A stretch of 64,000 nucleotides of DNA, taken from NCBI GenBank assembly GCA_032718475.1, contig JAUCBJ010000699.1, positions 62,001-126,000 of the forward strand, given 5' to 3'. Positions 2,828 to 43,163 of this stretch are shown one piece after another. The number at the start of each line of letters is the position of its first letter. The stretch's first letter is position 1. The notes under the pieces were generated by a model that worked only from the letters and a program-made list of their open reading frames with translations, searched no databases and was not told the origin of the DNA. Both the position numbers and the translations under genes were made by a program. Source of the stretch: Nemertoderma westbladi (Eukaryota; Animalia; Xenacoelomorpha).

Positions 2828-2859
2828 TGTGTATTTTTCGATATCCAGTCTATGGCTAG

Positions 2860-3150
2860 GATCGCTAATGTTTGGCTAAAGCCTGAAACACAGAAATTCC
2901 AAAGCCGGTCTTCTGGCATCAGGAAAAATACACACACTGACTGAATTGCATGAGTTTCTGTATACAATCTCCAACACAGAGTGAAAACCGCTCTGATTGG
3001 TCGACCGAACAAAGAATGAAGAAAAAGTTACACGTGGACACAGCTGATAGATGTCGTCATCTGAGTTCCGATGTTTAGAGTATTTGGCTTATTGCGACAT
3101 AAAATCGCTAGTTATGTCCGCTAAAGTACACATACAGAAGAAATGGCTTT
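2860..3150. repeat. Dispersed repeat, related copy at ~10600-10960
   Basis: Shared blocks such as CTCTGATTGG, CAGCTGA(T/C)AGAT(G/T)TCGTCATCTGAG and GTTATGTCCGC occur at both places. Confidence 0.7.
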
Positions 3151-11985: not shown

Positions 11986-12394
11986 GTATGATAGTAGGCG
12001 CATTAAAAGGCGAAACTGGAATCAAATTTCCCGCGTGAGCCAATCACCTATTAAATATGTACTCCATGAACCCGCAACCCGCTTGTCTTTTCTTCTACCT
12101 TCAACCCCCCCCCCCCCCCCCCCTCCCTGCTCCCTCCACATACACCCTTAGTTACAGCAATTATAAACAATGGTTAATAATCATTATTGGGTATTCTTTG
12201 AGGTAGAGGATTATAAATGCTGCTACTGCAGCTGTGAATTTTTAAATTGAATATTGATTTTAATGGAGTACTGGTATACATTATTGAATAAACCTCAGAT
12301 AATCCACCACGCCTATAAAAATTACACAACTTACTTTACGTTAACATCCTTTCGTATAAACTAAAATTCGTAAACTAATTTATAAACTAAAAAT

Positions 12395-14319: not shown

Positions 14320-15975
14320 TCATCAACTGCAAAGACGCTGCTCACGGGGGATACGCGACCAACGTCCAAGCTCGATTTGAAGTCTATGGGAGCGGAGTCT
14401 ATAACGAGTAACGCAGTTACTCTCAAACAATCTGGAATATAACCGGCACTAGAAGAGTAAATATTACATATGACAAGGTCAGGATTGACTTATAAGTATG
14501 TAGCAAATTTCGATTTTGTTATTACGAATCTCGATTTTAATATTATTGCAACTAGTTTTAATACTGCACTCAGATTTAAGAATGGAATCTAGGTATTTAA
14601 TACACGGTGTTTTACTAGTCCTACACATATTTAAAACGAAGAATAAGGGGTCATCCTTGTTCCAAATACGAGTCTGCCGTTTAAATGATCTAATAATAGC
14701 ATCATTAATTAACGAATTTACATCAGGCAGACCTAATTCGGCAAAACATAAAAGATTAGGTGTCGTGATTCTGACATTGAGCAAAATCTTAACCAATCTA
14801 ATATACAAGTCATTTATTGGTTTTCTACTGCACGGAGAGAGCCATGTGTTACAAGAATACAGTATTGAATGTACCGACATACTGACTAACAGGGGGTTGT
14901 TATGTATATATTAACTTTAAAGTAAACACTAGTAAACATTAATTATTTTTGTCCTAGTCCTACCTCTTTCACAGCGACAAAAATGTCATATATTTTCTTA
15001 TAGAATATAGGCTTAGTTTTTGTGCAGTTTATTACCGGTATCATTTAGTTTATGGCGGGTAGGTTTTAGGGTTGGGTTTGCGATACATACCTGTATGTGG
15101 AGCATGGTATATTATATATTTTGTTTGTGTTTGTTGTTTGTGTCCTTTGAAGGCCCTAGGGGCTGAGAAGTATTTTGGGCTTAATGTCCTGATTCTATAT
15201 TTTTTTTGTAGTTTAAGGGGTGTAAGACTCTAGTGTTTACTTTAAAGTTAATATAAGAATACAGTATAATATATACAGTAATATTGCACTATGGAACACT
15301 ATTAACTTTAAGAAAAATGGCATGTTACAATTAGTGGCGCAGAAGATGTCGAATTTACGCACGTAACATCGCATATAACATACTTTTGCATGCATCTTAA
15401 TAGCTGTAGCAATTTTACCGTCCTCAGTAATAATCGCACCGAGATATACGTATAATTTTGCATTCTTAACTACTGTATCTTCGGGGCAATTTATCTCTTT
15501 CACTACCATTTATAACCATAAATTTTGTTTTACTAACATGAATAACCATGTTATGAGAAGTACAAAATTGTAACAAGATTTCTAATTTATTTTGACATTG
15601 TTCACGTGATGATGCGAAAATCGCAGTATCGTCCATAAACATAATGGCGTGAAGTGAGCTAAGGTAATCATTACTATAACATAGTTCGTTAAAAATTGTT
15701 ATCAATGCATCAATATATAACGTAAAGATAAATAAACTAGAGGGCGCACCTTGCCTTACTCCGGCCTCCATACGAATGTCGATGCAATTTAATTTCAAAA
15801 ATGTTTGACTATAAACAGCTTTAATTGCGTTAATCATATTTTTACCGCACCCAAGTGCTAATAGTTTGGTAATCAATTTAAATCTTGACACTCGGTCGAA
15901 GGCCTTAGAAAAATCGACGAAAATTATATACAATTTATGTTTATTAGTAATTGCATAGTCGATTAACATGCGTAA
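14320..15975 (-). pseudogene. Degenerate LINE (RTEX-like, tentative) RT and C-terminal region, interrupted by an insertion
   Basis: FVDFSKAFDRV, GVRQGAPSS, FMDDT, YVYLGA, LLNVRITTPN..FAELG, and SHRLQIELGRWSRIPREQRLC read on the minus strand near 14330-14400. Confidence 0.75.
14866..15254. mobile_element. 389-bp insertion with 13-bp TSD and an internal/terminal inverted repeat
   Basis: AAGAATACAGTAT at 14853-14865 and 15255-15267. ATATTAACTTTAAAGTAAACACTAG (~14908-14932) is inverted at ~15230-15254. Confidence 0.65.
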
Positions 15976-15997
15976 TACACCTACATATTGCTCCTAC

Positions 15998-24071: not shown

Positions 24072-25990
24072 CAGGGCTTGCAAAGGGGTCCTACTAAATA
24101 CTACAAAAAGCACAAAACAAGCACAAAAAAGCACAAAAAAGTCAAGAAAAGCACAAAAAAGTCAAGAAAAGCACAAAAAAGCACAAAAAAAGCACAAAAA
24201 AGCACAAAAAAAGTAAAAAAAAGCACAAAAAAGTAAAAAAAAAGCACAAAAAAACATTCTCACATCAAGAGACATGGGGGGGGGGGGGGGGGGGGCGAAA
24301 ATATAAGAGATATTGTTACAGACACCCCCCACATACGAAGGTAACCCATACGCCTATGATTGATTAATTTGCAATGTTCTGACCTACAGTATGTAAATAA
24401 CCATAATAAATATAATAAGAAAATAAACATAATAAAACACATACAGTATAGAGATTAATAGCTTAATAAAACTACAGTAAATTACGATCGTGGGAAAGAA
24501 CACCCAGGATGTAAGGCACTCATGGGGGTCGTTAATTAAGGTAAAATAAAATAGAATATTGACATATAAGATAAGTACGCATGAACTCCTAAACAACATT
24601 GCAAACAATCTGGCAGTTATAGAAATTTCAAAGTATACAGTAGTGTTACAACAGCAGTGGTTAAACCCAGGCAGGAACTGTGTTTCCAACAGACGCAGAT
24701 ATCGTAACCAAGGCAGTTCCGACCTAAGCAAGATTCTTGCAAGTATGACTATGACTAATAATCATCATACTTAGTTTTTTAGTTTAGTTTAATACACTCT
24801 TTAATAATTCACATAAACATTCATTTAAAAAAAAACTTGTCCTCAGACGTTATCGATCACCCACTCGAGAGGTTCGGGCAGACCGTGATGTGATAATTGT
24901 ACAGTATGTCGATTTATCGGTGAATAAATTAAAGTAATTAACCAGAACGCTGATAAGTTGACATAATGTGACAATAACAAAGTCTATTACAGTATTATAA
25001 GTTCTATCCTGATATTTGAATTGAACCATCTTTACATTCTGACATTAGCCTGATATTGCACTTGGGTGTTCGTGGTAGGGCTGTACCTATGTAAGTGCTC
25101 GTGCTGGTGCTCACTCACTGGCAGCTATATGACATGAAAGCATACTGGACATGTGATTATCGTTCCGGTAGCCTAGACACTACTGCACTACATGATATTG
25201 CATCTATCATCTGTTCTATTACAAGCTCAATAAACGATCAGTTTGCTTTTTTGTGCTTTTTTTTTTACTTTTTTGTGCTTTTTTTTACCTTTTTTGTGCT
25301 TTTTTGTGCTTTTTTTGTGCTTTTTTGTGCTTTTCTTGACTTTTTTGTGCTTTTTTGTGCTTGTTTTGTGCTTTTTGTAGTATTTAGTAGGACCCCTTGC
25401 AAAGTAGGTTTTTGTACACCTAGGTTTTTATCGATTTTTGTCAAAAACCTAAAATTTGAAAAAAGCCTAAAACTAGGTTTTTAGGTTCACAAAAAAGAGC
25501 CAAATTGCTTGTTTTTTGAAAATTTCTGATGGCAAAAATATGAACCCCACAGACTAAAGTCTTTTGAGTTTCTGTCTTTTAACTAAGCCGACAATAAAAC
25601 CTCACTGCTGGCAGCTGGACTGACTAATATTACCCTATCCCTTTTTAAAACAAAAATCAAATAGATTACGGTATTCAGATATTTTAATATATTGTAGGCT
25701 TACAGGTATCTACTGATCTACCAGTGCTGTATAAAATATAATCTTGAACAATTGCGGCCCCATATAATTTATCTAACCATAACGAATGAACTGATGAACC
25801 AATTCAGCTCAGGCAGTCAGGTCAGGTCAATGAGTCAATCTAATCAATCAATACAGCAATATACAAATACAACCTGACAGAAATACTACAAAAACCTAGC
25901 AATAACATTCAAAAACCTTCAAAAAACCTGCAAAAACCTAACAAAAACCTAATTTTTGTTTTAAAAAACCTAAGGTTATTGCCAGCCCTG
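24072..25990. mobile_element. hAT-type MITE (~0.6 kb of own sequence) carrying a nested insertion
   Basis: TIRs CAGGGCTTGCAA / TTGCCAGCCCTG and 8-bp TSD ATCCAGAC at 24064-24071 and 25991-25998. Confidence 0.85.
24085..25396. mobile_element. Foldback-like element with ~160-bp repetitive TIRs and 7-bp TSD (Galileo/P-like, tentative)
   Basis: GGGGTCCTACTAAATACTACAAAAAGCAC... is mirrored at the right end. TIRs are built of AAAAAGCAC subrepeats. TSD TTGCAAA at 24078-24084 and 25397-25403. Confidence 0.8.
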
Positions 25991-26532
25991 ATCCAGACAC
26001 CTAGACCTACTGCTGTACTGGCAACTTGTAGTTGTCTGGCTCTGTAGGCTGGTGGGTAAAGGAGCAGCTAACAGAGGTGTGTTGAAAGGAACCAAAACAA
26101 TAAACGAGAGTTACGAGTTAGGAAAATGTAGGAAACCGAATTTAATTGAGAATCGAATCAACAACTTGATGATCAACAGTCAGATGTCAGGATGTATAGG
26201 TCTACGTCTGTACGTCTACCTACCCCGCTACCGGCAGACTGCTACCCTACCTCGGTGTGTAGGCGTATGTAACAGATCGATGGACAAGCCACCAAGCACA
26301 CTACAGCAATACTCAGTAACTAGAATTATCAGTAGGCACGTAAGCTATGTAGGTAAGCAGGTAAGTTATGCGGTAAGCAATAAAAAGTAGACCTACCGCT
26401 ACCGAGTACTGGTACATGCATTCTAACATTAGTTATAAAACACAATACATGCAATACGGTACCTTTTTTTACAATTACTTAAGTTTAAGTAGAGTTTATG
26501 AGTTGTCCCATGAAAGGTTGTCCTTGGTAATT

Positions 26533-27077
26533 TGTGACGGGATCCAGGAAGGATCCCGGTTTATCCGGTTTGTCAATTCACGCGAACCCGCCGTGTGTGA
26601 AAGATAAAAGAGTTTACGTTGTTCGTTGTATATAATATTCGGGATATGTATAGTATAGATATAGATAATGGATAAGATAAATATTGTTGTACGCGGAAGG
26701 CGGGAAACGGTAATTTAAATCCCGGTACTTCCCTAGCTAAACTATTGCTACTGTAACACCAATAACACTGAGATAACTGAATGAGATGATTACTGCCAAC
26801 TGGTTATATTGCACGGGTTGGCCTTGTTACTGTACCTAACCGATGCCTTTTCCCCCCTCTGATTGGCTAATGTCCCTATTGGCGCCCTTTGGAGTGTTTC
26901 CGTTCACTCCAGCTATTCTCTCTCGGTTAGGGGTTTGGCCCCTGACCCTCATTGTGTGTTTCTCCTTCCCACTTTGTTGGGGTGACACGAGTTGTTAGTT
27001 ACCCAATCTCGTGGCCCCCAATATTGCTTAACGGTTGACTTTATGGGTTTGTGTTAGCGGAATTGAATAAGCTAACA
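26533..27077 (-). repeat. 3' LTR (545 bp)
   Basis: TGTGAC...GCTAACA, direct repeat of 39985-40528. Confidence 0.97.
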
Positions 27078-27087
27078 CTCCCCCCCA
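27078..27087 (-). other. Polypurine tract (plus-strand primer)
   Basis: Minus strand TGGGGGGGAG immediately abuts the 3' LTR. Confidence 0.85.
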
Positions 27088-27779
27088 TGCTATCTTCCCG
27101 GTGAGAAGATAGCATCCACCTCAAGTGCGCTACAATTCCGCTGGATCCCGATCTATTATCGGGTGTGGGGTGGAACTATTTTCTTTCGGAGCCGGCTTTC
27201 CAGGCCGCTCCCTATGGGTATGATATCGCTACCCGTTTCGCCTGGCGTCCCATGTCGGGCCGATCGTGCGCTCCTCACATGACTTTTGTTTCCCCAACAC
27301 TTCGCCACTTTAACTCTACTCTGTTCTCACCCTGACTCTCCTCTACTTCTCCTCACTACCGCTCTAACTCTCGGACTTCCCTGTCCCTCACTCAGCCTCT
27401 TATTCCTCCCACACACTTGAATTGCATTCGCACTCTCTCTGCACTCTGCACTATCACCTCTTACTCGACCTCCCTTTGACTACCCCATCCCTTCTTACGA
27501 ATCTCACTCCCCCTTTGTGCCGTCGCACTCAAGAAATGTGAAGTCGTCTGGTGTCTCGTCCATAGTACCATAGTCAGTTAGCCCCCCAGTCCCAGTAGCT
27601 AATTGAGAAAGGTTGAATGACTATAGTACTTACTTCGAACGTATATTTCATTGCTAAACTACTGATTACTACGTACATACATATAATTGCACTTATTTAA
27701 TTATTTGCATCAGTTTGAATTTGTACTTAATAGTTCGTACGTCCCACGTGGCGCCTTCCAGGCGTACCACATTGAAGTC

Positions 27780-30389
27780 TCAGTTCATCCCCCCTGACTT
27801 TGGGAACCACCTCAAGTCTTTCCCTTTGCCGTCCTCCTCCCTGGGTCGTTTCCTGGTCACTACCGCTCCTCTGGGATCCGCTTTCTGTCTTCGGACCCTC
27901 GCCGCCACCTCCTTACTGATCCCGGTCGTTGGCTCCCTGGGTGCTGGTGTTATCAGCTCCCGATATCGCTTCGCGGGTGGCCCCTCCAAATGGCCCTGTT
28001 GTCTCCCCCTGGTGGCGTCCCATATGATCATCTTCATTGCCCGCGGCACGTGCTCCGCCAGGAAATCCCTAAACTCCCCTCGGTTCTGTGGCGTCCACCT
28101 GTCCAAATACCTTTGTGTATTCATCACCCCGGCATACGACGCCGCCGTTGCTACCTCTTGATAGGTAAACGGTAGCCTCCGCTTTATGATTTCCATGTGA
28201 GCCTCCTGATTGATGAGGAAGAAACCCCACTTGAACTCCTGGGCCTTCATGCGCTGGCGCGTCATGGCCCCGACGTCGGCCCACTCCTCGAATCTTCTGA
28301 ACTTCTCTTCGTCGTCCATCCAGTCGCACTGGCGTCCGTAGTGTCCCCGAAAGTTGCACTTTGGACATCGGTTATGCAACCGTGGACACGCCCCCATCCT
28401 GTGGCTCGACTCGCGGCAGTAGAGACAAAAGGTTCCCTTTTGGAACCGGTACAAACAGCTCCTTTCCTGGTGGGTCTGTCTCCCACAGTAGTCGCAACCG
28501 AGTACCAATGTCTCCCGCCTCACGTCGTCTTTCGTCCCAAGCGATCTCCGCGGTCTGTGGAGTCGCTGGTAGGCGAACTTCTGTACGTTAGTGTCCCTGT
28601 CTACGTCGATCTCTCCGCCCCTCTCGGGCATCGTCTCCCCGAATACTACCCGTGGTGCCGTCCCCGGTTGCTCGCCCAACCTGATAGTGCTCCCCGCGAA
28701 ATCCATCGCCGGCTCCTCGTGCACCCAGGCCCGCTTGCCGGGTCTATCCCAAAAGGCCCTCGCCCCACTGGCCGTCACCACCCTCCCGCCAACCCAGTCC
28801 GTGTCCGAGTGGCCAATCCTCTCGATGGGCGGCACCTCTCCGAACTCGTCGTCATGTTCCTCCTCCTCTGGCAGTGGCTCCAACCCCGGTATCCCGATGG
28901 ATCCACTATGTCCCTTCCCGCCTTGGCTCTCGCCCGTAGCTCTCCATCCCTCTAGCTCCCTTAACTTCCTTGGCGGTTGGTCGCCTTCGGCGCCCGCTGG
29001 TGTGGGCATCGCTTGCAACCCCGACGTCGACTGTTTCGGCGATCCCACCGTCCATCCCAGTTCTCGCCCTAGAGACTCCCCCGAACTCCCTGACGAAGTC
29101 CAACGAAGTTCGTCTAAGCCTGCCTGTTCCTCGAAGCCGTAACTCTGCGTCCTGGCCTCCTCCTCCCTCTCCTCTGCTTCTATCCTCTCCCGTCTAGCGA
29201 CTTCTTCCAGTCGCTTTGCCTTTCGTCTATCCGTCTCTAGCTGCTCCCATCTCTGATACGGCGTATCTGTCTCCCCGTCTATCAGATGTCGGCTGTTGTA
29301 GTACACCGACTCGCCCTTCAGCCCCGGGTGGTCTACCAGACCGTCGAAGGCCGTTTTAAAGGCTCTCCTGTAGCTTAGGGGTGATCCCGATAACAGAAAT
29401 GCCGCTGGTTCCCTCTCGATAACCGCGGTCAAGAATAAGTTAAGCAAACTTATCATCATCCAATCTTCCTGCAGGATATATCGCTTCTGATATACCTTTA
29501 TCGCTCCTCTGCGGAATTGATATACCTCTTGCCTCCCCGGTCTCGCTCCCCACTTTAGCGAGTTCGCTAGTTCTGCTCCGTATTCCTCCCTGAACTTCCC
29601 CCAGTCCATCGGTTTGTGGCATACGAGCCCCAATAGCTGGCCCATTGCAACCGCCCCGCATTGGCCTGTGTTCCCGACTACCCCCAACCCATCTGGTGCC
29701 GTCATAGCCATCAAGACCTTCTGCATATCCAGAAGGTTGGTGGCGTCCAGACCGATGATTCTCTCCGCGTCCTCGCGAATCGCCGATCCCACCTTCGTCG
29801 TCGACTTCTCTCTTACCAAGACTTGCACCGCTTTCGGCAACCGGTTTAATTTCGGCCCCTCCTTCTTCCCATACGTTCCTAGATCGAATAAGAAAATGTC
29901 CCCATTTGGCGCGGCCAAATGTAGGAGTATGGTCCTGGCCGACCCCGCTGATCCTCGTCTCGAACCCTCCTCGTCTTCCACGGTTCCCTCGTCGTCTAGG
30001 ATCATATATCCTCCCCTGTTGACGGACTCTATGAATCTCTTCCAATCCTTCTTCGGCGACTCCCTCGGGTACTTCGGAATCCTGAACTTCGCCTCGTCCC
30101 CTTTCACCACGTAGTGGAAGTGTTGGAAGATCGCGTTGTCCAGCGATGGCGTCCCGTAGGTCCCGACCAGCCGCTGTTCGTGCATCTCCCGGAAGTGGTC
30201 CTGCAGCGCTCGTGCCGCGTGACCCTTTTCCAACCTCTCGTAGTATCCTCTCGTCTTCTCTTCCGGATGCCTCTTGGTGAAATCCACCAGTATCTCCTTT
30301 CCTCCTGACTCCGCCTTTCTCTTTCTGATCAGTTTTCCCACCATTTCGAACTCCTCCGATCGCTCACCTATAAGGTGGTGCCTTACCAA
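27780..30389 (-). CDS. Retrotransposon accessory ORF: DEDDy-type 3'-5' exonuclease domain, acidic linker and three CCHC zinc knuckles
   Basis: ExoI ILDDEG (D132/E134), LLHLA..IFLFDL, LPKAVQVLV, ExoII KVGSAIRED (D207), NLLDM, QLLGLVCHKP, DW, ExoIII-like QKRYILQED (Y304, E308/D309). Knuckles CDYCGRQTHQERSC, CLYCRESSHRMGAC, CPKCNFRGHYGRQC. Track start is TTG; the first ATG is at 30344. Confidence 0.8.
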   Translation of the reverse strand: MVRHHLIGERSEEFEMVGKLIRKRKAESGGKEILVDFTKRHPEEKTRGYYERLEKGHAARALQDHFREMHEQRLVGTYGTPSLDNAIFQHFHYVVKGDEAKFRIPKYPRESPKKDWKRFIESVNRGGYMILDDEGTVEDEEGSRRGSAGSARTILLHLAAPNGDIFLFDLGTYGKKEGPKLNRLPKAVQVLVREKSTTKVGSAIREDAERIIGLDATNLLDMQKVLMAMTAPDGLGVVGNTGQCGAVAMGQLLGLVCHKPMDWGKFREEYGAELANSLKWGARPGRQEVYQFRRGAIKVYQKRYILQEDWMMISLLNLFLTAVIEREPAAFLLSGSPLSYRRAFKTAFDGLVDHPGLKGESVYYNSRHLIDGETDTPYQRWEQLETDRRKAKRLEEVARRERIEAEEREEEARTQSYGFEEQAGLDELRWTSSGSSGESLGRELGWTVGSPKQSTSGLQAMPTPAGAEGDQPPRKLRELEGWRATGESQGGKGHSGSIGIPGLEPLPEEEEHDDEFGEVPPIERIGHSDTDWVGGRVVTASGARAFWDRPGKRAWVHEEPAMDFAGSTIRLGEQPGTAPRVVFGETMPERGGEIDVDRDTNVQKFAYQRLHRPRRSLGTKDDVRRETLVLGCDYCGRQTHQERSCLYRFQKGTFCLYCRESSHRMGACPRLHNRCPKCNFRGHYGRQCDWMDDEEKFRRFEEWADVGAMTRQRMKAQEFKWGFFLINQEAHMEIIKRRLPFTYQEVATAASYAGVMNTQRYLDRWTPQNRGEFRDFLAEHVPRAMKMIIWDATRGRQQGHLEGPPAKRYRELITPAPREPTTGISKEVAARVRRQKADPRGAVVTRKRPREEDGKGKDLRWFPKSGGMN

Positions 30390-30816
30390 GGCGCAATATA
30401 AGTGAGTGATGCAGTTAGGATGGTCTGTACGGTCTGATAATGGCCTATTTTCTATCTAACTACGCCCTTTTAGCCTAATTTCTATTACTTAATTTTGTAG
30501 CTAACAAATGTACCTTATTTGCAATTTCTGTCCGTTGCTTTAATTATGTTCCAGAATAATTTTCCTCCTGTTACCATAATTTGTAATTTTCTTAGCCCTA
30601 TTTATTCTATTTTATTTCTAACCTATTTCTACTATTTACTGCTTATGGATTATTCTATTTCATAATCCACATTCTGACCTACGCTATGGGCCTGTGCAGT
30701 ACAGCAGTATATGTCGCGTGGCCTACACGATCTATCCAACTGTACTCATATGCCCCCCTCTTGCTACTAACTACTAACTAATATCTATACTATGTATACC
30801 CTTCTACCTCTCTCTC

Positions 30817-31420
30817 TTACTAATCGGTACTACGTACCCTCTTACTACTCTCTAACTAACTAACGGTACTACGTACCCTCTAACTCTAACTCTACTAACG
30901 GTACTGCATACCCTCTTACTACTCTCTAACTCCACTAACGGTACTACGTACCCTCTTACTACTCTTCCAACTCTACTAACGGTACTACGTACCCTCTTAC
31001 TACTCTCTAACTCCACTAATGGTACTACGTACCCTCTTACTACTCTTCCAACTCTACTAACTGTACTATGTACCCTCTTACTACTCTTCCAACTCTACTA
31101 ATGGTACTACGTACCCTCTTACTACTCTTCCAACTCTACTAACGGTACTACGTACCCTCTTACTACTCTTCCAACTCTACTAACGGTACTACGTACCCTC
31201 TTACTACTCTTCCAACTCTACTAACGGTACTACGTACCCTCTTACTACTCTTCCAACTCTACTAACGGTACTACGTACCCTCTTACTAACCTCTAACTCT
31301 ACTAACGGTACTACGTACCTTCTAACTGACTAACTAACTAACTAACTAACTCTAGGTACTACGTACCTTCTAACCGACTAACTCTAGGTACCACGTACCT
31401 TCTAACTAACTCCTAACTAA
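30817..31420. repeat. Internal 41-bp tandem array (~15 hairpin-bearing units) between pol and the accessory ORF
   Basis: Unit ACTAACGGTACTACGTACCCTCTTACTACTCTTCCAACTCT with the palindrome GGTAC-TAC-GTACC, degenerate at both edges. Confidence 0.93.
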
Positions 31421-31538
31421 CTAACTCTAATTTTTATTTATTTTATTTTTTATTTTTATGTGTAGGAAGGGCGTCTCGCCCTCAATCCCACCCCCCTCAG
31501 TCCAAACTTGGACGACTAAACTACACTCTAACTCCACC

Positions 31539-34500
31539 CTAAGGTGCCCCTTCTAATAGACAGCATTTCCCTACAGCTCTCCTGTAGGTTTTTCTGTCTT
31601 TCGCACCGATCTTTCCACCTATCCGCACTTCTACCGATCGGACATCGGAGTAAGTGCCTACGACTCTCGCCAACCGCCACTGGTTGTTGATGATAGTATC
31701 ATCCGTAACGATTACGAGATCTCCCTCTCTTAACTCCCTATTTGACTTCCTCCACTTGCTTCTTCTGTGAAGCGTGGGTAGGTATTCCTCAACCCACCTC
31801 CTCCAATACTCTGCGCTTATTGCTTTAGCGACCTTCCAACTCTGGCGGGAATGTATGTCATCTGGGTCTACACCCCGCATATCGATGGTCGCTGGCCTTT
31901 CCATTAGAAAATGGCTGGGTGTCAGCACATCTAATGACTCAGGGTCATCATTCTCCGGATATAGCGGTCTGCTATTAATGATCCCCTCGCACTTCGCAAG
32001 CACTGTCCTTAAGACGTCCTCAGTGACCATGTGGGTGTTCATTAGCTTCGTCATAAGACGCTTTGAACTGCCCACCAGTCTCTCGACGCATCCTAGTGTA
32101 TGTGGTGCATACGGCGTCCTTCTCTCCCACTTTACTTGTCGTCGTCTCATGGCCGCCCTGACTTCCTCCCCTTCCAAGATGTCCAAGGCCTCTGCCATCT
32201 CGTTCTCTGCTCCCACAAAGTTGGTTCCGCTGTCGGAGTACATTACTGCGATCGTCCCACCTTTGCGGTCTCTGAATCTTTCTAATGCATTAATAAATGC
32301 TGATGCGGTTGCATCTTGGGCGAGTTCTATCCCTACCGCCCGCGTGTTGTTACATACGAAGATAATACCGTAGCGTTTCTCCGTGTGCCGCATCACCTTG
32401 ATCTTTATCGGCCCGAACATGTCCACACCGCAATGTGTAAATGGCGGGTCGTGCTGTCTTACTCTACTCGCTGGTAGTGGCGCCATCTCTTGTATGGCTC
32501 GCTCCTTCTTCGCTCGTCGGCAGGTCTGGCATTGCCCCACTACCGCTTTTACCTTCTTCCTCAACTGCTTGACCCAAAAGGTCCTCCTTATCTCCGTGAG
32601 AGTTCGGTTGGTGCCCCCGTGCAATATCGACTTATGGGAGTCCCAGATAATCTGGTGGACTATTGGCGATCCTGTGGGAATGATGATGGGTTTCGGTGGT
32701 ACGACTATGCTGTTGTTGTATCCCACCCTAGAATTCATTACTAGAATCCCGTCGTCATTAAGTTGTGGCGACAGCGTGATCAGCTCGCTGTCCCGTCGAA
32801 GGTGCTGTTGGTTACCGACGCGTTCCACCTCGTCGCCATAGTTCTTCCGTTGTTCATAGCGGATGACTGCCTTGGCCGCTCCTTCCAGATCTATGGTTGT
32901 CCTGATCTTCTTGTCTTTGCCAACTCCCGCGAGGAAATTCCCGAAGGCTCTCCAGTACGCCACTAATTTCTTGGTCTTATACCAACTAGAGCTGTAGCTG
33001 AGGAGTTTATCTGTCGGGTTATCGCACAGTTCTTCTGGTTTAGGTTGCACGTCCCTTATCTCCCTCACCATCTGGGAGTATATCTCTTCTCCCTCTGAAT
33101 CTCCCTCTTCTCCTTCTGACACTACCTCTCCTGAGTCCGGGTCCACCTTTCTCATCGGCGGCCAGGCCTCCTTGTCGCTCAGAAACTGCGGCCCGTGTTG
33201 CCACAATCCTTCCTTTTTTAAGAAAGTGTGGCGTGCCACGCCCCTTGATAACAAGTCCGCTGGGTTCTCGTCCGTTGGGCAGTAGTGCCACCTTTCCAAT
33301 TCTGTGGTCGCCCTTATCTCGTCCACCCTGTTCGCGACGAATATTGGGTATCTCGTCCTTTCGTTATGTAGCCAACCAAGCACTACCATGGAGTCCGTCC
33401 AGTAGTGTGTCTCCACTATGTTGGGAATAGTATCCACTAGGTAGGCTGTGGCTCTAACTCCTAGTCTCGCAGCTGTCAATTCTAATTTGGGAACTGATGC
33501 TGAATCTGGCGGCGTTGACTTTGCTTTGCTAAAGGCCAGTCTGGGCTTGTGAGCCCCCTCTCGTTGTACTAAATAGAGTGCCGCTCCGTACGCCTCCAAC
33601 GACGCATCGGAGAACATGTGTAGGTCCAGATTCGTCATGTTCCCATCCGGGAAATACACTCGTGGCATGTTGTATGTTCCCATCTTCTCCAAGTCTCCTG
33701 TCCACTTACTCCACTGTTTCTTGATTTCCTCTGGTACCTCTACGTCCCACTCATCCTTCAATTTGTATACTCTCTTGAGTATCTGTTTCCCCGTGACTAA
33801 TAATGGGGATGCTAGACCTAGGGGATCGTATATCCTTGCTATATACGACACATAGCCCCTCTTCGTGTGGATGTCTGCGCCCTCCTGGCTCAGCTGATAC
33901 TTCAGTTCGTCTGTCTCTCTGTTCCACACGATTCCCAATGCCTTCTGTTGAGATTCTGTTCTCTTGTTCGCCATGTCCTGCCCTTTGGCTGTTGTGGGAT
34001 TATCCATGGTCGATTCTGGTCTCTTGTCCTCTATCGCCTTGATAAATTCTTCCGAACTGGATTGGAATTTGGTCAGGTTAAAGCCGGATCCTTTTAGGAT
34101 GTCGCGAACCTCGCGCCCTGTGTCCAGTATCTCCTTAACCGTATTTCCAGACTCCATTCCGTCGTCTACGTAGAAGCCGCGTCGAATCATATCGACGGCC
34201 CTAGTGCTGTATCTATCTTCCTTCCCCTTCACCGTATCTCTCACTGCCATAGTCGTCGTAAATGAAGACGACTTGGCTCCCATATTTTGTACTACCATCT
34301 TATATGCCGGTATTATCGACGGTTCTTCCTCGCCGTTATACCATAAGAAGCGTTGACTGTCGCTATCTTCCTCCGTTACACGGACTTGGTTGAACATGCC
34401 TTCTATGTCACACGTGAAGGCGTGTTTCCCATTTCTAAATCTAAGTAGGACCTCTATCCCCGAGTTGTATATGTTTGGACCTTCTAGCAGGTAGTCGTTT

Positions 34501-36932
34501 AAGCATTTTCCGTTGGTCTTTGCCGATGCGTCAACTACCATCCGCAGTTTACCTTTCTTTGGGTCTAAAGCCACGTGGAGTGGCAGGTAATATGTCCTGT
34601 CCGTGTTTGGTTCGTCGACCGGTAACTCCACGGCCCATCCTTTCTCGACGTACTTCTTAATCGTTCTGTGGATGTACTCATTCTTCTCGGGGCTCCGTTT
34701 TAGTGTTTGTTTCAGCTTGCGGAGTCTCGTGAGTACCATCCCTCTATTATCGGGCAGTGGTAACTTCGGTAGTTTCCATACCATTCCTACGGTGTACCGC
34801 CCCTCGTCGCACTTCATAGACTCCTCTACGCTCTGCTGAGCCTGTTTGTCTTCCACCGAGGTCCCGACCCCGGTCTCCTTTAATCCTTCAAAATCCTGTC
34901 TGAGCAGTCTTTTAAGTTGCTCCTCTGCTCTCTCATCACTCATTTCCTGCATAGTTCCCGCGAACATGCATCCTGATGTCTCCGACATCCTAAATGGTAT
35001 CTTGCTCTTGATTGGGCCACTTAGCGTCCACCCGAATGGTGTCAGTATTGCCACCGGGTCAGACTGCTTGTCTTCGCCGAAGACCGTTTGCATTCTTTCG
35101 TGGGCCGTTGGGCAGTCCATTCCTACTATGATGGATACCTTCCTAACGTCCACATCTGGGATTGAGAAGTCAATATCGTCCAGAAATTTATATTGTTCGA
35201 CCTCGATGTTGGTTGGCCGTCTGGCATTGATGTTTATTGACTCTATCACTTGGATGGGGTCGATGCTAGCCCCATAGTCGCATCCTGGTGCTATTGCTGC
35301 GATGGTGCACCGTCCGGTTCTCATCTCCAGGACCTCATCTTTGCTGGAGATGGTTGTTACCGCCATTCTGCTTGGCCTCGTTCTCAATCCTATTTCTTCG
35401 GCCACCCAATCCTCGACTAATGTGAAGGCAGCTCCACTATCAACCAGCATTAGTGTTGTTACTGATCGATTGCCTTCTCCAATCACTCGTACGGGTACTA
35501 CCCCAAGTAACACCGTTCCTCTCTTCTTCGCCCCTACTGTGCTCGTTGCCATCGTTTGGCCTTTCCTTTGACCGAACTTGACCGGCATCTCCTTGCATTC
35601 CCTAGCTCTATGTCCACTCATCACACATCGCGAGCAGATCTTGTTGCTCGCCGCATAATCTATCTGATCTTGCCTAGATAGCGCTTGCCAGTACCTGCAG
35701 TTCATGGTTTGATGAAGCGCATTTGTATGTAGCTGGCATTTGCTCTTTGGGTCGTAGCCCTCCTTATACAGTGCATCGCGTATCGCAGCTGCGTTTGTAC
35801 CAAAGTCCCTACTATTCTTATTGTTTGGATTCGGCCTACTGGACGTACTGGGGTTATATTTATTCGTGTTGTTATTGTTCCCCTGTCCGTTCCATGGTGT
35901 GGTCTTACTTTCGGCTACCTGTGGACTTGCAGTCCCCTGCGTCGCTGCATATGGCAGTGATTGCCTGAGCCTCGGTAATGCGTTTGATGTATTGTGCTCT
36001 GGTTTCGGTCTATGGTAATCCGTCTTCGGTCCCTTCCCCAGGCTATCTTCGCTATAGACTGGGTCGGTTATTAGTTCAGCTTCGTAGTTTAAGAAGCTTG
36101 ACATTTCTTCTAAACCCGGTTCCGCACCCTTCCTATCTCGAGTGGAGAAAGCGATTTTCCTCCACTTGTTGCGCAACCACATCGGTAGTGCCTGCGCTAT
36201 CGTGGTGATGTTGTTGGACGCATTGAGTTCGTATGGCGCGTCTAGTGTCTTTAACACGATCAGCGCCTTCTCAACCTTGTTCGCAAATGTCTTAATGCTA
36301 ACGGGATTATCCTGTAGGCCACCCGATGTTATGCCTCTCAGGGTCTGCCTGATGATCTTGGCTGGGTGTCCGTATTCCCTGTCCAGTGCCCGCCATGCTG
36401 TCGTGAAGCCGCCCTCTCTGCCCTGATATTGCCTCACGATGTCATATGCTGGGCCTCCTGTGTATACTTGCAAATACTTTAGGCACTCCGTCTGCGTTAA
36501 GTTCTTTGTTAGTATTTCATTGCTATACATACGCCGAAACTGGAGATATTCTTCCGGCCTACTCCCATCGAATTTGAATGGTTCCACGGGTGGTAATTCG
36601 ATCCTTGTTTTTAATGCATCGATCAATGTGGCCATCCCCATCGCCTGCGCTTCCAATGGATTCGATGGATGTTGTATAGTTCCTCCTGTTGGGTGCCGTC
36701 CGCTCGTTCTATTTTCTGCCTTTCTATGGCTTGGGTATATCATTGGGGGTAGCGGCCCCCTCCATATTTCTGTGTCACACGACCTATTTTCATCCAATGG
36801 TCTCGTTGTCCTTGCTCCTATCGGGGTATATTGTTGATATTGCGATGGGGGAATGTCACCCTGTCCCCCCCCCCCCCCCCCACCGGTATTTATGGTATTG
36901 GGGTTGATGTTAATATATTGGGGCCCATGCAT
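31539..36932 (-). CDS. pol: Bel/Pao gag-pol polyprotein (capsid-like domain, zinc knuckles, aspartic protease, RT, RNase H, integrase), 1797 aa
   Basis: FKFDGS..EYLQF (Bel/Pao gag), CSRCVMSGHRAREC, LVDSGA, FYVDD, LHMFSDAS..AYG, HHCC, GVDMFGP / SDSGTNF / VERLV, YWRRWVEEYL. Confidence 0.96.
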   Translation of the reverse strand: MHGPQYININPNTINTGGGGGGGQGDIPPSQYQQYTPIGARTTRPLDENRSCDTEIWRGPLPPMIYPSHRKAENRTSGRHPTGGTIQHPSNPLEAQAMGMATLIDALKTRIELPPVEPFKFDGSRPEEYLQFRRMYSNEILTKNLTQTECLKYLQVYTGGPAYDIVRQYQGREGGFTTAWRALDREYGHPAKIIRQTLRGITSGGLQDNPVSIKTFANKVEKALIVLKTLDAPYELNASNNITTIAQALPMWLRNKWRKIAFSTRDRKGAEPGLEEMSSFLNYEAELITDPVYSEDSLGKGPKTDYHRPKPEHNTSNALPRLRQSLPYAATQGTASPQVAESKTTPWNGQGNNNNTNKYNPSTSSRPNPNNKNSRDFGTNAAAIRDALYKEGYDPKSKCQLHTNALHQTMNCRYWQALSRQDQIDYAASNKICSRCVMSGHRARECKEMPVKFGQRKGQTMATSTVGAKKRGTVLLGVVPVRVIGEGNRSVTTLMLVDSGAAFTLVEDWVAEEIGLRTRPSRMAVTTISSKDEVLEMRTGRCTIAAIAPGCDYGASIDPIQVIESININARRPTNIEVEQYKFLDDIDFSIPDVDVRKVSIIVGMDCPTAHERMQTVFGEDKQSDPVAILTPFGWTLSGPIKSKIPFRMSETSGCMFAGTMQEMSDERAEEQLKRLLRQDFEGLKETGVGTSVEDKQAQQSVEESMKCDEGRYTVGMVWKLPKLPLPDNRGMVLTRLRKLKQTLKRSPEKNEYIHRTIKKYVEKGWAVELPVDEPNTDRTYYLPLHVALDPKKGKLRMVVDASAKTNGKCLNDYLLEGPNIYNSGIEVLLRFRNGKHAFTCDIEGMFNQVRVTEEDSDSQRFLWYNGEEEPSIIPAYKMVVQNMGAKSSSFTTTMAVRDTVKGKEDRYSTRAVDMIRRGFYVDDGMESGNTVKEILDTGREVRDILKGSGFNLTKFQSSSEEFIKAIEDKRPESTMDNPTTAKGQDMANKRTESQQKALGIVWNRETDELKYQLSQEGADIHTKRGYVSYIARIYDPLGLASPLLVTGKQILKRVYKLKDEWDVEVPEEIKKQWSKWTGDLEKMGTYNMPRVYFPDGNMTNLDLHMFSDASLEAYGAALYLVQREGAHKPRLAFSKAKSTPPDSASVPKLELTAARLGVRATAYLVDTIPNIVETHYWTDSMVVLGWLHNERTRYPIFVANRVDEIRATTELERWHYCPTDENPADLLSRGVARHTFLKKEGLWQHGPQFLSDKEAWPPMRKVDPDSGEVVSEGEEGDSEGEEIYSQMVREIRDVQPKPEELCDNPTDKLLSYSSSWYKTKKLVAYWRAFGNFLAGVGKDKKIRTTIDLEGAAKAVIRYEQRKNYGDEVERVGNQQHLRRDSELITLSPQLNDDGILVMNSRVGYNNSIVVPPKPIIIPTGSPIVHQIIWDSHKSILHGGTNRTLTEIRRTFWVKQLRKKVKAVVGQCQTCRRAKKERAIQEMAPLPASRVRQHDPPFTHCGVDMFGPIKIKVMRHTEKRYGIIFVCNNTRAVGIELAQDATASAFINALERFRDRKGGTIAVMYSDSGTNFVGAENEMAEALDILEGEEVRAAMRRRQVKWERRTPYAPHTLGCVERLVGSSKRLMTKLMNTHMVTEDVLRTVLAKCEGIINSRPLYPENDDPESLDVLTPSHFLMERPATIDMRGVDPDDIHSRQSWKVAKAISAEYWRRWVEEYLPTLHRRSKWRKSNRELREGDLVIVTDDTIINNQWRLARVVGTYSDVRSVEVRIGGKIGAKDRKTYRRAVGKCCLLEGAP

Positions 36933-39916
36933 CTATCCGCAATAATTCCCCCCTCCCCTGGGTATATGTTATATCCTTTCGTGCTGTAGTCATACTGCTG
37001 CACTGGTACCGGTATAGGCCTATCAGCTTCTGGCCTACCTGCCGGTATGTACTCCGCGACTTCCGGGTTTAATTCCGTCGTCCGCGCTATCCTATCGCCT
37101 ACATTATTCCTGTCAGCATGGCCTATGGTATATGCAGTAAGGCCTACAGTATGTCCTACAGTCTGTATGTATTGCTCGGGATCGAAGTTTATTCTTCTCG
37201 AATAATCCTCCCCGCGGTTACCGTACTCTCGATCCGTTGGTATATCCCATCGGAAAGTTTCTCTTCGACCCTCTCTACTACTCTCGTCTACGTGCCGGTA
37301 CATCGCTATCCGTCCTCGCTCTCCTGTCGTTCGCGGCGATACTTCTTCTGCTGTCTTCTCTTCTCCTCCTCTCAGTGCAATATTCCCGCTCATGAGATCT
37401 CTCGTCGACCTCCCGGTTAAACTCCACTGTTCTTCTTCCCTCTTCTGATCGGGCTCGACGCTTCGTCCGCCCTCTCGCGACATCGACCTGCTTCTCTCTG
37501 CTCGATCGCACGCCGCTGGGGATACTCGCAATCCCCCTATTACTCTCCGTCGCCGGGTGTTGCGGTTTACCTGATTCGGCCCGCGCATTATCCACTGACG
37601 GCTGTGGGACACTCTCTGCCCCCCCCCCCCCCCTTCGCCACTAATTTCTCGTTGTGGGGCTCCTGTAGCCCCCCCCCCCCACTCGCCACATATTATACCG
37701 CTACCTCTAACTTCTCTTCTACACCCCTCTCCAGTCGACACTATATTTCTACTGCGGCTGGGTTCACTTACCCCTGCCTCTCTCTCCACTACTACTTGGC
37801 CTATCGGGCCTACTCCGGGTTGGCTCAACCCCGCCACCTCCTGCCTACTAACTACGTGGCCTACCATGCCACCGTCGGGTCGACTCAACCCCGCCACCTC
37901 CTGCCTGCTAACTACGTGGCCTACCAGGCCACCGTCTGTCGGCTCATGCACGTCCGACGCGTTCGCGTTAATAGCACCTATATTAGAAACGGAATTATTT
38001 TGTTCGTTCGAAATAGAATCATTTGGATTATTTTGCGCGACTACGTTATTTGAATTATTTTGTAAATTCGGGCTTGGATTATTATTTAAATTATTTGAGT
38101 TATTATTATTTTCTAAATTTAAATTATCATTCGGATTATTTTGCACGTTTAAATCAAAATTATTATTTAGGCTATCTGTATTTAAATTCAAATTACTACT
38201 ACCAGGCAAAGTATTTCCTGCAATATAAGTTTGGTTAGGATTATCCGATACGGTACCATTAATATTAACGTCGTCTACAGTAGCATTATTATTACCCCCC
38301 CCCCCCCCCCCCCCGCCCGTACGGTCACACCAGTTTCGTGTCTGTCGTGCGGTCCCTGTAAGTGGGGTATTAATAAATGTATCCACGGCCCCTGGCTCCT
38401 CGAGAATATTCGAGCCAGCCCCGCTCTCAGATGCCCCTATCCGCGCCAGTTCTAGTTCGCGTATGCGTCTAGCCTTGTACTCTATAAGCTCCTTTTGCTC
38501 TCTTTCCATTTTTTCTCGCAAACGCTTCTCTCTTGCCATTCTCTCCTGGTCCTCCCGTGCGTTCTGGTTGGCCAGTTCCGCCTCTCTCTTAGCTCGCTCC
38601 CTTCACCTCGCCTCACGCTCTCTACGCTCACTTTCCTCTCTCGCCTCACGTTCCTTGCGTTCCTTTTCCTCTCTCGCCTCACGTTCCTTGCGTTCCTTTT
38701 CCTCTCTCGCCTCACGTTCCTTGCGTTCTGCCTCACGCTCTTTGCGTTCTGCCTCACGCTCTTTGCGTTTACTTTTCTCTCTCGCCACACGCTCCTCTTG
38801 TTCCCTCCTTTCTATTTCCTCACACTCCTTAAGGCTTTCCACGGCCTTCTCGGCCCTCTCCCTGGTTTCTCTAATCAGTACTGCTTCCCTCTCTAGTTGT
38901 ATTCTCCCCTCCTCTAACCGCCTATTTAACTCTCTCTGACCTTGTTCTATCAGGTTGAGATGGTACGTGGCATTTATCTCTCTCACCCGTCTTTCTTTCA
39001 CGGAGGATGTAGCAGACTTATCGGTTACGACGGATTCCCTCCGCCTTCCCGACCTACTAACTCTCCCCCCCTTTCCAGAACTTCCCCCGACCGACGAGAT
39101 CGAATCCTCAGGCTCAACCTCGGATTCGCCCTCCTCAGGTCTCCTCCAACCCACAAATTTTACACCCTGGGCATCGACTAAGTATGGCCCTACGTACACT
39201 GCACTAGGTTGCATACCCCTACACCGCCATAAATCACACAGTTCCTCTGCAACCCCTCTCGCTCTCTCCTTGGCCAGTTCTCTCTGCCCGAAACGCATTA
39301 GATAGCTAAAATGTCTATTCGACTCATCTAGTCCTCTCGTTAACTTCACCTCATCTATCTCCGTCCCCTTCTTGGCCTCCTTTAGTAGCTTCCGGGTCGC
39401 GTTGTAGGCCCGTCGAAGTTGATCAGAAACCCCGACGTCCTCGTTGCCGACCTCTCCTCCGTCTCTCCGGGTCCGACGTCGTACCGGCGGCCCCACCGTC
39501 GCCGTTCCGGTGGGCCGTCCGTCGCCCTCGGCCTGTAGCTGGCCAGCGACATCGGTACCGACATCTCCCCCGTCTCTCCGGGTCCGGCGTTGTACCGTCG
39601 GTCCCACCGTCGCCGTTTCGGTGGGCCGTTCGTCGCCCTCGGCCTGTGGCTGGCCGGCGACGTCGGCACGTCGACCCTCGTTCTGTGTCGACTCGTCTCC
39701 TTCTCCTTCCAACTCACCCTCTCGGTCTCTCAACTCGACTCCCCCTCCTCTCGACTCGACCTCTGGCTCCAGACGGCCCCCCTCGTCCTGAACTGCCGGA
39801 TCACCCGTTACCGATGGGTCTGGCGACGTGGGCCTATACCGCCTGGTCGCGGCCTCACGGATCGTTAGTTCTTCGTCCGGGGTCCGCGTCGGTGTCATCT
39901 CTCCTGACTGACTCAT
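36890..39916 (-). CDS. Long low-complexity/coiled-coil gag-upstream ORF (~1000 codons), interrupted by one in-frame TGA at 38603-38605
   Basis: Track ORFs 38603-39916 and 36890-38539 are in the same frame and separated only by one TGA (AGG TGA AGG GAG CGA). Contains E/R-rich coiled-coil repeats, an Asn-rich tract and Gly runs. Confidence 0.65.
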
Positions 39917-39984
39917 CTCTCTTCAATAGATTGGTGGCTGGTAGTTACTGAGTTCAACTAGGGCGGCAGCTCTGATTCAATTAC

Positions 39985-40528
39985 TGTGACGGGATCCAGG
40001 AAGGATCCCGATTTATCCGGTTTGTCAATTCACGCATCCCCGCCGTGTGTGAAAGATAAAAGAGTTTACGTTGTTCGTTGTATATAATATTCGGGATATG
40101 TATAGTATAGATATAGATAATGGATAAGATAAATATTGTTGTACGCGGAAGGCGGGAAACGGTAATTGAAATCCCGGTACTTCCCTAGCTAAACTATTGC
40201 TACTGTAACACCAATAACACTGAGATAACTGAATGAGATGATTACTGCCAACTGGTTATATTGCACGGGTTGGCCTTGTTACTGTACCTAACCGATGCCT
40301 TTTCCCCCTCTGATTGGCTAATGTCCCTATTGGCGCCCTTTGGAGTGTTTCCGTTCACTCCAGCTATTCTCTCTCGGTTAGGGGTTTGGCCCCTGACCCT
40401 CATTGTGTGTTTCTCCTTCCCACTTTGTTGGGGTGACACGAGTTGTTAGTTACCCAATCTCGTGGCCCCCAATATTGCTTAACGGTTGACTTTATGGGTT
40501 TGTGTTAGCGGAATTGAATAAGCTAACA
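39985..40528 (-). repeat. 5' LTR (544 bp)
   Basis: Direct repeat of 26533-27077. By eye it differs by ~5 substitutions and one homopolymer indel. Confidence 0.97.
40225..40335 (-). promoter_or_regulatory. Predicted LTR Pol II promoter: CCAAT boxes, TATAA (40260-40256) and overlapping Inr-like TCATTC/TCAGTT (TSS ~40234-40230)
   Basis: Minus strand reads GCCAAT...AGCCAATCAG...AATATAACC...TCTCATTCAGTTAT, with TATA-to-Inr spacing of 26-30 nt. Confidence 0.55.
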
Positions 40529-40926
40529 TAATTAATAACATTCATTGGAAATACATGCATGCATGCAGTTAGATTTGAATTTCCCGCCCACACAAAGTGT
40601 TTATCCATGAATGAATGATGAAAATCATTAAAATTGAAGCTTCAGTAGCCCTTGGCTAATATACCGGTATAAGAGATCGTCTACTGTAGGCGCATATATA
40701 TATATAATTGGGGCTGCGGGTGCTGCTTTCGGTTGAAATTAACTTATGAACTTAATTTCGGGAATATTTTATTTCCTTTTCAAAACCAAAATATTAACCT
40801 AAATTTATCACAGTTGACTGTTAACATTTTACTCCTAGCTACAGTATGGGTCGTTTCTAATTCTCCAATATAAGAATCGATACTCGGCATTATAGCTATA
40901 CCAAATTGGAGTAATTTATTATTGGT

Positions 40927-41951: not shown

Positions 41952-43163
41952 TTATAACTTTGCTTTAGTTTCTGGCTTCGCTAATAGCGGTGAAAATTTA
42001 AAATTTGGATCAGTAACAGCTGGCCTCTGGTACCGAAACCCAGTAATATCCCATCGAGTCATCCCATCTAGCGACAAATCCGCGCAAATTTTACCCAAAA
42101 CAGAGGCAAACTTGTAGGCATGACCAGCGCCGCAGCATACAATAACCTCTGGATGACCAATAGAGGCGAGGCTATCCACCACAAATTCGCGATCTCTTGT
42201 TACTGTGTAGAGACACGTCTTGGAATATAGAATATCTCCAAGAGACCCTGGTATTACCTCTGAAAGGAACTTAACGCACGCATCCAACCTCACCTGGTCC
42301 ACATCAAATGTTCTCGTATCAGCAGTGGTTGGAGCTCGACAATAATCGATACCAACTTTAGTACCACTGTTCCCATGAATAGGAAGGCCGTAGATATCAT
42401 ACTTATCAGCATGATAGATGTAGCAAGGAAACCGTTCCTTCGTGAAGTCTTTGATATTCGGAGTTGCAAAGTAATGAACTTGTTCTTGAGATACGACAAC
42501 GGGAATGTTTGCTCCAAATTGATTTATTACCTGATTCACCCATGCCCCGGAAGTTACAATTACCTTCCTTGCAAAAAAATCACCCTTTGTTGTTGTAACA
42601 CATGTATAATGGCCAAATGATTTGCAGTGGATAATCTTTGCTTCTTGCACTATATGAGCGCCATGTTTCCGCGACAACTGAATATGAACAGCATTGGCCA
42701 ATGCTGCATCAACTAGCCCACCTTCAGGGTCAAAATGAGCCAAGTGTTCTCCAACTAACTTAAATTGAGGAAACTTCTCCATCATATCTTGAGTATCCAG
42801 TTGATAACAAGTATTTCCTGTTTCTCGCATAGCCATCATGTAATCAGCTGCCACATGTTCTCTACCACTACCTTTCCTTGCTATGTCTACTGCCCCTGTT
42901 TTATATACCAACTGTAAGCCACTTTCTGCTTCAACATGCTCCCAACATTGGTAGGCCCCCGCAGCTAGACGGCAGTATTTACCATCATGGTATAGGTAAC
43001 GAATGATTCTGGATTCATCCTGCGATCCTCCATTATGATGACCAAGTTTGAATTGTTCCAGGCCGATGACATTTTTACCAAGTCGCTGTGATAACCAGTA
43101 GAGGGTGGAACTGCCAATACCTCCAAGGCCAATAACCAAACATTTGTAAATGGTTTCAGACAT
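41952..43163 (-). CDS. Monomeric sarcosine oxidase / N-methyltryptophan oxidase / PIPOX-family flavoprotein with PTS1 (AKL), 403 aa, uninterrupted CDS
   Basis: FAD-binding VIGLGGIGS, GGSQDESRIIR, covalent-flavin Cys motif KTCLYT, GHAYKFASVLG, C-terminal KAKL. Confidence 0.9.
   Translation of the reverse strand: MSETIYKCLVIGLGGIGSSTLYWLSQRLGKNVIGLEQFKLGHHNGGSQDESRIIRYLYHDGKYCRLAAGAYQCWEHVEAESGLQLVYKTGAVDIARKGSGREHVAADYMMAMRETGNTCYQLDTQDMMEKFPQFKLVGEHLAHFDPEGGLVDAALANAVHIQLSRKHGAHIVQEAKIIHCKSFGHYTCVTTTKGDFFARKVIVTSGAWVNQVINQFGANIPVVVSQEQVHYFATPNIKDFTKERFPCYIYHADKYDIYGLPIHGNSGTKVGIDYCRAPTTADTRTFDVDQVRLDACVKFLSEVIPGSLGDILYSKTCLYTVTRDREFVVDSLASIGHPEVIVCCGAGHAYKFASVLGKICADLSLDGMTRWDITGFRYQRPAVTDPNFKFSPLLAKPETKAKL

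Follow-up and report, generated by a model that had tools for sequence, protein, structure and literature searches.

A predicted DEDDy-type exonuclease gene with three zinc knuckles, retained by selection in a Bel/Pao retrotransposon family of Nemertoderma westbladi

Why retroelements should carry 3′-5′ exonucleases is a question that has stood since such genes were reported from rotifers in 2017. It is raised again by a stretch of 64,000 nucleotides from Nemertoderma westbladi (Xenacoelomorpha; assembly GCA_032718475.1, contig JAUCBJ010000699.1, positions 62,001 to 126,000), hereafter the window. The window contains a long terminal repeat (LTR) retrotransposon of the Bel/Pao type whose third open reading frame (ORF3) is placed between pol and the 3′ LTR, in the position open to an env gene, and is predicted to encode a DEDDy-type 3′-5′ exonuclease domain followed by three zinc knuckles. 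We find that ORF3 is an accessory gene which selection has preserved in the many copies of a Bel/Pao family, the selection signal being measured in the nuclease core.

Copies of ORF3 were found throughout the family. In sequencing run X1, 1499 contigs fell on the 661-bp nuclease core (29400-30060), 277 of which were less than 90% alike, and no insertion or deletion occurs in the core among the variants listed. We scored the best-supported 40 of 70 variant places, which are differences from one copy, taken singly and shared among related copies. Synonymous changes made up 33 of these 40, against 12.5 (31%) expected for the same types of change (P = 3e-11), and the crude ratio of nonsynonymous to synonymous rates (dN/dS) over the same 40 places is ~0.1. 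None of the seven replacements touches any of the five catalytic residues, and codons 293 and 294 show only silent changes among these variants; Glu293, an unusual residue considered below, is accordingly a family trait. Variants shown in pol are likewise mostly silent (12/13). Moreover, the codon usage of ORF3 correlates with that of pol (r 0.68) and not with that of three neighbouring ORFs outside the element (r -0.26 to -0.41), consistent with a long stay in the element. A preliminary description of this DNA, made from the letters alone, had allowed that ORF3 might be a one-off capture; the family-wide copies together with the silent excess in the core show that it is not.

The reading frame itself is open from 30344 to 27780, in the sense of pol, beginning 1.2 kb past the pol stop and behind a 41-bp tandem array (Table 1). 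The uninterrupted frame of ~850-870 codons that had been described within the LTRs thus amounts to 854 amino acids from the ATG; its former boundary at 30389 arose because the stop-free frame extends upstream of that codon. Residue numbers given here are those of the preliminary description minus 15, so that its D132/E134 are our D117/E119. Immediately upstream of the ATG there is a branch-point-like and an acceptor-like stretch. The exonuclease motifs are where they had been read (ILDDEG at residue 115, LLHLA at 140, FLFDL at 151, KVGSAIRED at 184, NLLDM at 203 and QKRYILQED at 286), as are the three perfect CX2CX4HX4C knuckles (28496-28455, 28427-28386 and 28367-28326). No shuffle of the ORF3 protein (0/20000) yielded more than one such knuckle. 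An origin of the knuckles as a copy of those in the element's own Gag was considered and is not supported, the only match being of 17 residues (E 0.025). The N-terminus is basic, and basic patches occur at both ends, although these are common in such a lysine- and arginine-rich protein. Hydropathy over 19 residues peaks at 1.33 and hence the protein has no membrane anchor, nor the signal peptide of an env-like product, in agreement with the lack of an env-like transmembrane segment noted before. We therefore rejected an Env role for ORF3.

Assignment of the domain to the DEDDy nucleases is well supported by remote homology, resting on a custom profile, an alignment and language-model features. 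A hidden Markov model (HMM) was built from bacterial DEDDy domains, 57 of 60 PF01612 matches from bacterial genomes being used (L141-L143 were not). This scored 12.9 bits against ORF3 over residues 101-210, where the best of 1000 shuffles reached 5.7, and neither reversed ORF3 nor pol scored at all. Comparison of ORF3 with the same set by hhalign gave 33.2 (best of 150 shuffles, 21.4). The hhalign global alignment and an independent MAFFT alignment agree on the register, placing D117/E119 at ExoI, K184/D192 at ExoII, W265 at S-x-W, Y289 in the column of the invariant tyrosine and E293 in the column of the last aspartate, with D294 beside it. In the MAFFT alignment of 56 rows, ORF3 included, the D, E and Y are invariant, while identity of ORF3 to the DEDDy rows is 11-18%. 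Moreover, ESM Atlas features of residues 90-345 scored 0.94-0.95, and 25 of 30 matches fell in clusters where some of the members have PF01612, at most 34% of them in any one cluster.

Structure prediction leans towards the DnaQ/RNase H-like fold expected of such enzymes, with a caveat. AlphaFold, given the DEDDy alignment less one of its 57 rows (L122), returned a model with a predicted local distance difference test score (pLDDT) of 73 and a predicted template modelling score (pTM) of 0.74, and Foldseek matched this to 52 PDB entries at E<=0.001; this support is partly circular because the model was built on the DEDDy alignment, the profile HMM and the ESM Atlas features giving the fold independent support. 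The structural matches that the preliminary description had proposed to look for were obtained with the alignment, whereas AlphaFold from the single sequence gave a pLDDT of 32 and no usable fold. Egalitarian, EXD2, TbRND, Nibbler and Rrp6 are all among the matches, and their ranking names no donor. Neither do sub-family profiles single one out: an EXD2-like profile scored 6.6 bits, which none of 1000 shuffles reached, RNase D 0.5, Pol I 0.2 and NrnC -2.0, and when the EXD2-like set was used by itself, the global hhalign alignment went out of register. Of the earlier family assignment, the DEDDy fold is supported; no particular closeness to WRN, EXD2 or Nibbler over RNase D, Rrp6 or Egalitarian emerged. 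That ORF3 is a real, selected gene of DEDDy fold we consider highly probable; that it is also catalytically active seems rather more probable than that it is not.

What might such a protein do for the element? We suggest that ORF3 encodes a likely 3′-5′ exoribonuclease that would blunt small-RNA silencing of the element, and give counter-silencing as its main role a probability of about 0.4. ORF3 would have an mRNA to itself, either spliced or subgenomic, as a separate ORF with a 1.2-kb spacer and a Kozak ATG suggests. The three knuckles would hold single-stranded RNA, whose 3′ end the DEDDy-type domain would trim, RNA being the expected substrate by analogy to TbRND, the RNase D of Trypanosoma brucei. 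The targets may be unmethylated precursors of PIWI-interacting RNAs (piRNAs) or small interfering RNAs (siRNAs), or sliced RNA of the element, and the outcome would be that silencing is blunted. A separate ORF is what one would expect of an accessory protein acting in trans rather than of an editor coupled to the reverse transcriptase (RT), and the presence of DEDDy ORFs in retroelements with unlike modes of replication would point to some need that they have in common, host silencing for example. Taken together, a trans-acting plan and a cargo shared with Ty3/gypsy elements and Terminons favour action on small-RNA precursors or sliced RNA. Should ORF3 act on small RNAs, it would represent a silencing suppressor protein encoded by an animal transposon.

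A number of observations weigh against this reading. Searches of ORF3 against Pfam, NCBIfam and PHROGs gave no exonuclease match even at E 10; this includes PF01612, a family that the preliminary description had named as a check and whose curated cut-off ORF3 does not reach. No homologue was found among 5.8 billion clusters with full ORF3, residues 1-372 or residues 590-790 as queries, nor among 1.84 billion representatives with residues 1-372. The hhalign probability is just 55% and the local profile match spans ExoI to ExoII only. At ExoIII the fourth acidic residue is Glu293 where aspartate is canonical, making a D-E-D-E-y site; the term "intact" used at first holds for the reading frame and not for this position. 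Outside the 40 core variants, five of six ORF3 variants shown change the amino acid, and minor copies in the runs have deletion joints (27764 to 28330 and 27795 to 28330) that remove the C-terminal part of ORF3 right after the third knuckle. Nuclease and knuckles are some 300 residues apart, a distance that in TbRND is 28 residues. Mature piRNAs are 2′-O-methylated and resist enzymes of this kind. As far as the available portions of the rotifer report go (PMC5408684), DEDDy ORF3s there have no clear link to higher copy number, and the elements are still covered by small RNAs. Egalitarian, in the accessible part of a recent preprint (bioRxiv 10.1101/2025.08.03.668247), can do without catalysis although its five catalytic residues are all retained, and it transports I-factor RNA; the retention of such residues is thus no proof of cutting.

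The last point bears on another explanation, in which ORF3 is a non-catalytic RNA adaptor of the Egalitarian, EXD1 or Exuperantia kind, its fold and knuckles serving to export, localise or package element RNA and replacing an Env route to the germ line. The exchange of aspartate for glutamate at ExoIII would suit this, as would the long linker of predicted disorder with basic patches at both ends of the protein. Egalitarian moreover is among the top fold matches and, in the same part of the preprint, binds retrotransposon RNA with catalysis dispensable. However, ORF3 has a residue of the right kind at each of the four acidic positions and at the tyrosine, and the 40 listed variants leave these unaltered, whereas Exuperantia and EXD1 have, by that account, lost catalytic residues; the rank of Egalitarian is itself uninformative, since the top 20 E-values lie within one order of magnitude and the model derives from the DEDDy alignment. 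We regard an adaptor as unlikely. It is very unlikely that the domain is no DEDDy nuclease at all, or that the gene is a piece of host sequence captured of late and of no use to the element. Missing Pfam matches and homologues, the single-sequence pLDDT and the low identity to DEDDy rows would all be expected in that case, but three methods concur on fold and register, and purifying selection and element-like codon usage largely refute the part that denies it a role.

Alternatively, ORF3 could act inside the particle, where the knuckles would bring an active exonuclease in on the genomic RNA and the enzyme would trim a primer 3′ end, or mismatched or untemplated cDNA bases, before strand transfer. 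The primer so trimmed might be one that the element provides itself, by cleavage of its own 5′ end. The 18-nt site for a transfer RNA (tRNA) primer, tRNA-Arg or tRNA-Gly, that is usual in Bel/Pao was not seen, as judged by the missing TGG start after the 5′ LTR. Instead, the 14 bases that follow this LTR pair, at -10.0 kcal/mol and with two G:U pairs, with an LTR segment (40225-40238) that closely follows a TATAA at 40260. The arrangement is a candidate for self-priming of the Tf1 kind. When 451 windows of the element were compared, the two LTR copies ranked first and second, and 20/2000 shuffles reach this pairing, in a test chosen post hoc. The length of the element (14.0 kb, beyond the 4.2-10 kb of the family; PMC8742986) and the nucleocapsid pattern of the ORF3 knuckles also favour a particle role, and 3′-end processing of element RNA is suggested in the available text of Rodriguez et al. 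(PMC5408684). Against it, the pairing was picked after looking, contains G:U pairs and formed in only one of three trial folds (start 40238), and a second, exact 9-nt complement exists at 40162-40170 (29/2000 shuffles), which contains one of the five LTR-LTR differences. Moreover, an editor of RT would be expected within Pol. A role in the particle is rather unlikely in our estimate; were it true, an editing or primer-trimming step would be added to reverse transcription.

The element that carries ORF3 measures 13,996 bp on the minus strand (40528 to 26533). Its LTRs match at 539 of 544 aligned columns, with five substitutions and one 1-nt indel (99% identity). Contigs from 3/4 runs (two samples, two studies) connect 26527 straight to 40529 with five letters shared, showing that there is an allele without the element, and hence that the insertion is polymorphic; the element is recently inserted. 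It is covered in 30/30 bins in all four runs, with ORF3 whole in each. The 1797-aa ORF contains DUF1759, an aspartic protease (PR), RT, Pao peptidase/RNase H (RH), integrase (IN) and DUF5641. On its Pfam matches (Peptidase_A17, E 3e-40; DUF5641, E 4e-19; DUF1759, E 1e-10) the element belongs to Bel/Pao, as had been proposed, and it shows several features of Belpaoviridae, namely two LTRs, a target duplication, a polypurine tract and Gag followed by PR-RT-RH-IN with Bel/Pao-specific families. In this copy gag is broken twice, at 38603-38605 by an in-frame stop and near 36890-36932 by a change of frame, and G homopolymers near these breaks could be assembly errors. The sequence ahead of the Gag capsid domain (36890-39916) is unusually long, at ~1000 codons, and is made up of coiled-coil, Asn-rich and Arg/Gly-rich parts. 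The spacer between pol and ORF3 holds 41-bp (12.7 copies) and 32-bp tandem arrays (30818-31418), whose length varies between copies.

Table 1. Features of the Bel/Pao element and its ORF3 (positions in the window; strand given as - or, where none applies, a point).
Feature	Position	Strand	Remarks
5′ LTR	39985..40528	-	544 bp, TG...CA
3′ LTR	26533..27077	-	545 bp, TG...CA
Target-site duplication, left copy	26528..26532	.	5 bp; empty-site joint (26527 to 40529) shares 5 letters
Target-site duplication, right copy	40529..40533	.	5 bp
Primer-binding position	39971..39984	-	no TGG tRNA-type start; pairs with LTR 40225-40238 (candidate self-priming site)
gag region, first part	38603..39916	-	437 aa, coiled-coil-like; closes at in-frame stop in this copy
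gag region, second part	36890..38539	-	549 aa, low complexity; frame shift before next ORF
Gag capsid/knuckles and PR-RT-RH-IN ORF (pol), Bel/Pao type	31539..36932	-	1797 aa; YVDD and integrase D,D,E motifs
41-bp tandem array, pol-ORF3 spacer	30818..31327	.	12.7 copies
ORF3	27780..30344	-	854 aa from ATG; good Kozak context (A at -3, G at +4)
DEDDy-type 3′-5′ exonuclease domain (predicted)	29385..30059	-	aa ~96-320; D117, E119, K184, D192, W265, Y289, E293; D294 adjacent
Charged low-hydrophobicity linker	28545..29384	-	aa ~321-600, ~280 residues; disorder predicted from composition
Three CX2CX4HX4C zinc knuckles	28326..28496	-	aa 617-630, 640-653, 660-673
ORF3 C-terminal part	27780..28325	-	~110-aa domain without assigned family, and basic tail
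Polypurine tract, adjoining 3′ LTR	27078..27086	-	

Elsewhere in the window, a satellite with a 58-bp unit, present in over 200 copies and strongly GC-skewed, occupies 48560-64000 and reaches the window end. Two intronless coding sequences are also present: a flavin adenine dinucleotide (FAD) oxidase of the DAO family (41952-43163, minus strand), above the NCBIfam cut-off for N-methyl-L-tryptophan oxidase and similar to sarcosine/pipecolate oxidases, and a galactose-3-O-sulfotransferase-like ORF (12386-13621, plus strand; Pfam E 2.5e-52). Fragments of reverse transcriptase of the long interspersed nuclear element (LINE) type occur at 704-2875 (minus), 7149-8518 (plus) and 15466-15993 (minus). 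Inverted arms of ~150 bp, composed of short repeats and 1 kb apart (24083-25398), possibly represent a miniature inverted-repeat transposable element (MITE) or a foldback element.

Lastly, we compared ORF3 and its carrier with known systems. The element resembles Belpaoviridae in its LTRs, PR-RT-RH-IN order, Pao peptidase, DUF1759, DUF5641 and polypurine tract. It departs from them in its size, in a third gene that is not env-like, where the profile of the international virus-taxonomy committee (ICTV; PMC8742986) lists env-like genes only, and in that no tRNA-type primer site was seen. In the literature searched we found no exonuclease in Bel/Pao; this search did not extend to Repbase, GyDB, subscription journals or the supplementary element sequences of PMC3118150, any of which could hold the architecture. 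The word "exonuclease" is absent from the main text of PMC3118150, PMC8556966, PMC6238403 and PMC12440569. A metagenome search with pol left one locus from 18 candidates (L144; integrase part, 33%), too short to reveal the region 3′ of pol. Homologues of ORF3 were also absent from the phages, viral contigs and metagenome contigs searched, and PDB sequences gave one chance match.

Among cellular proteins, Egalitarian, EXD2, Nibbler/Mut-7 and Rrp6 share the order of motifs and, in the partly circular Foldseek comparison, the fold, none of them being singled out as donor. To our knowledge none of them carries a knuckle triplet. The closest architecture is that of TbRND (PMC7797062; PDB 7c42-7c4c), which, in the sections of that paper available, likewise has a DEDD exonuclease followed by tandem CCHC knuckles and no HRDC domain, its CCHC domain supplying RNA binding and strongly boosting cleavage. 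TbRND is also among the best Foldseek matches, with a TM-score (TMq) of 0.52-0.56 for the model made from the DEDDy alignment. On the other hand, it is a cellular, mitochondrial enzyme with four knuckles, the short linker given above, the canonical fourth aspartate and no sequence match to ORF3. The likeness is one of shared architecture, not membership.

The nearest parallel among retroelements is in bdelloid rotifers. According to the available portions of Rodriguez et al. 2017 (PMC5408684), ORF3s of a DEDDy, RNase D-like type that bear the residues DEED occur in Juno and Vesta (Ty3/gypsy) and in Athena/Terminon elements; 3′-end processing or a part in silencing was proposed, neither activity nor selection being shown for the DEDDy ORFs in those portions. 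Two reviews, likewise available in part, restate the finding (PMC6431247, PMC6338049). The novelty first suggested for the present architecture therefore has to be given up in its broad form, as a DEDDy ORF3 in the env position of LTR elements has been published and DEDD with CCHC is a solved cellular architecture. In the same portions, the rotifer ORF3s are, as here, separate ORFs past pol and inside the LTRs, RNase D-like, without a membrane anchor and with glutamate at one acidic position. By description, ours is set apart by its Bel/Pao carrier, by D-E-D-E in place of DEED, and by three C-terminal knuckles with a long linker; moreover, purifying selection is shown in the present family. 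What is new, then, is that the carrier is a Bel/Pao element, that the sequence is an orphan with a D-E-D-E site and a triple knuckle, and that there is evidence for selection. A young, polymorphic, multi-copy Bel/Pao family keeps its exonuclease gene under purifying selection, and the knuckles suggest a class of substrate. Tentatively, and at less than even odds, we propose that Bel/Pao may be a third, independent class of retroelement to have recruited its own DEDDy exonuclease, joined to nucleocapsid-type knuckles and active with a D-E-D-E site, which would suppress the piRNA/siRNA pathway of animals or complete a primer of the element's own making. In that case LTR superfamilies would have converged, more than once, on exonuclease cargo as an alternative to Env.

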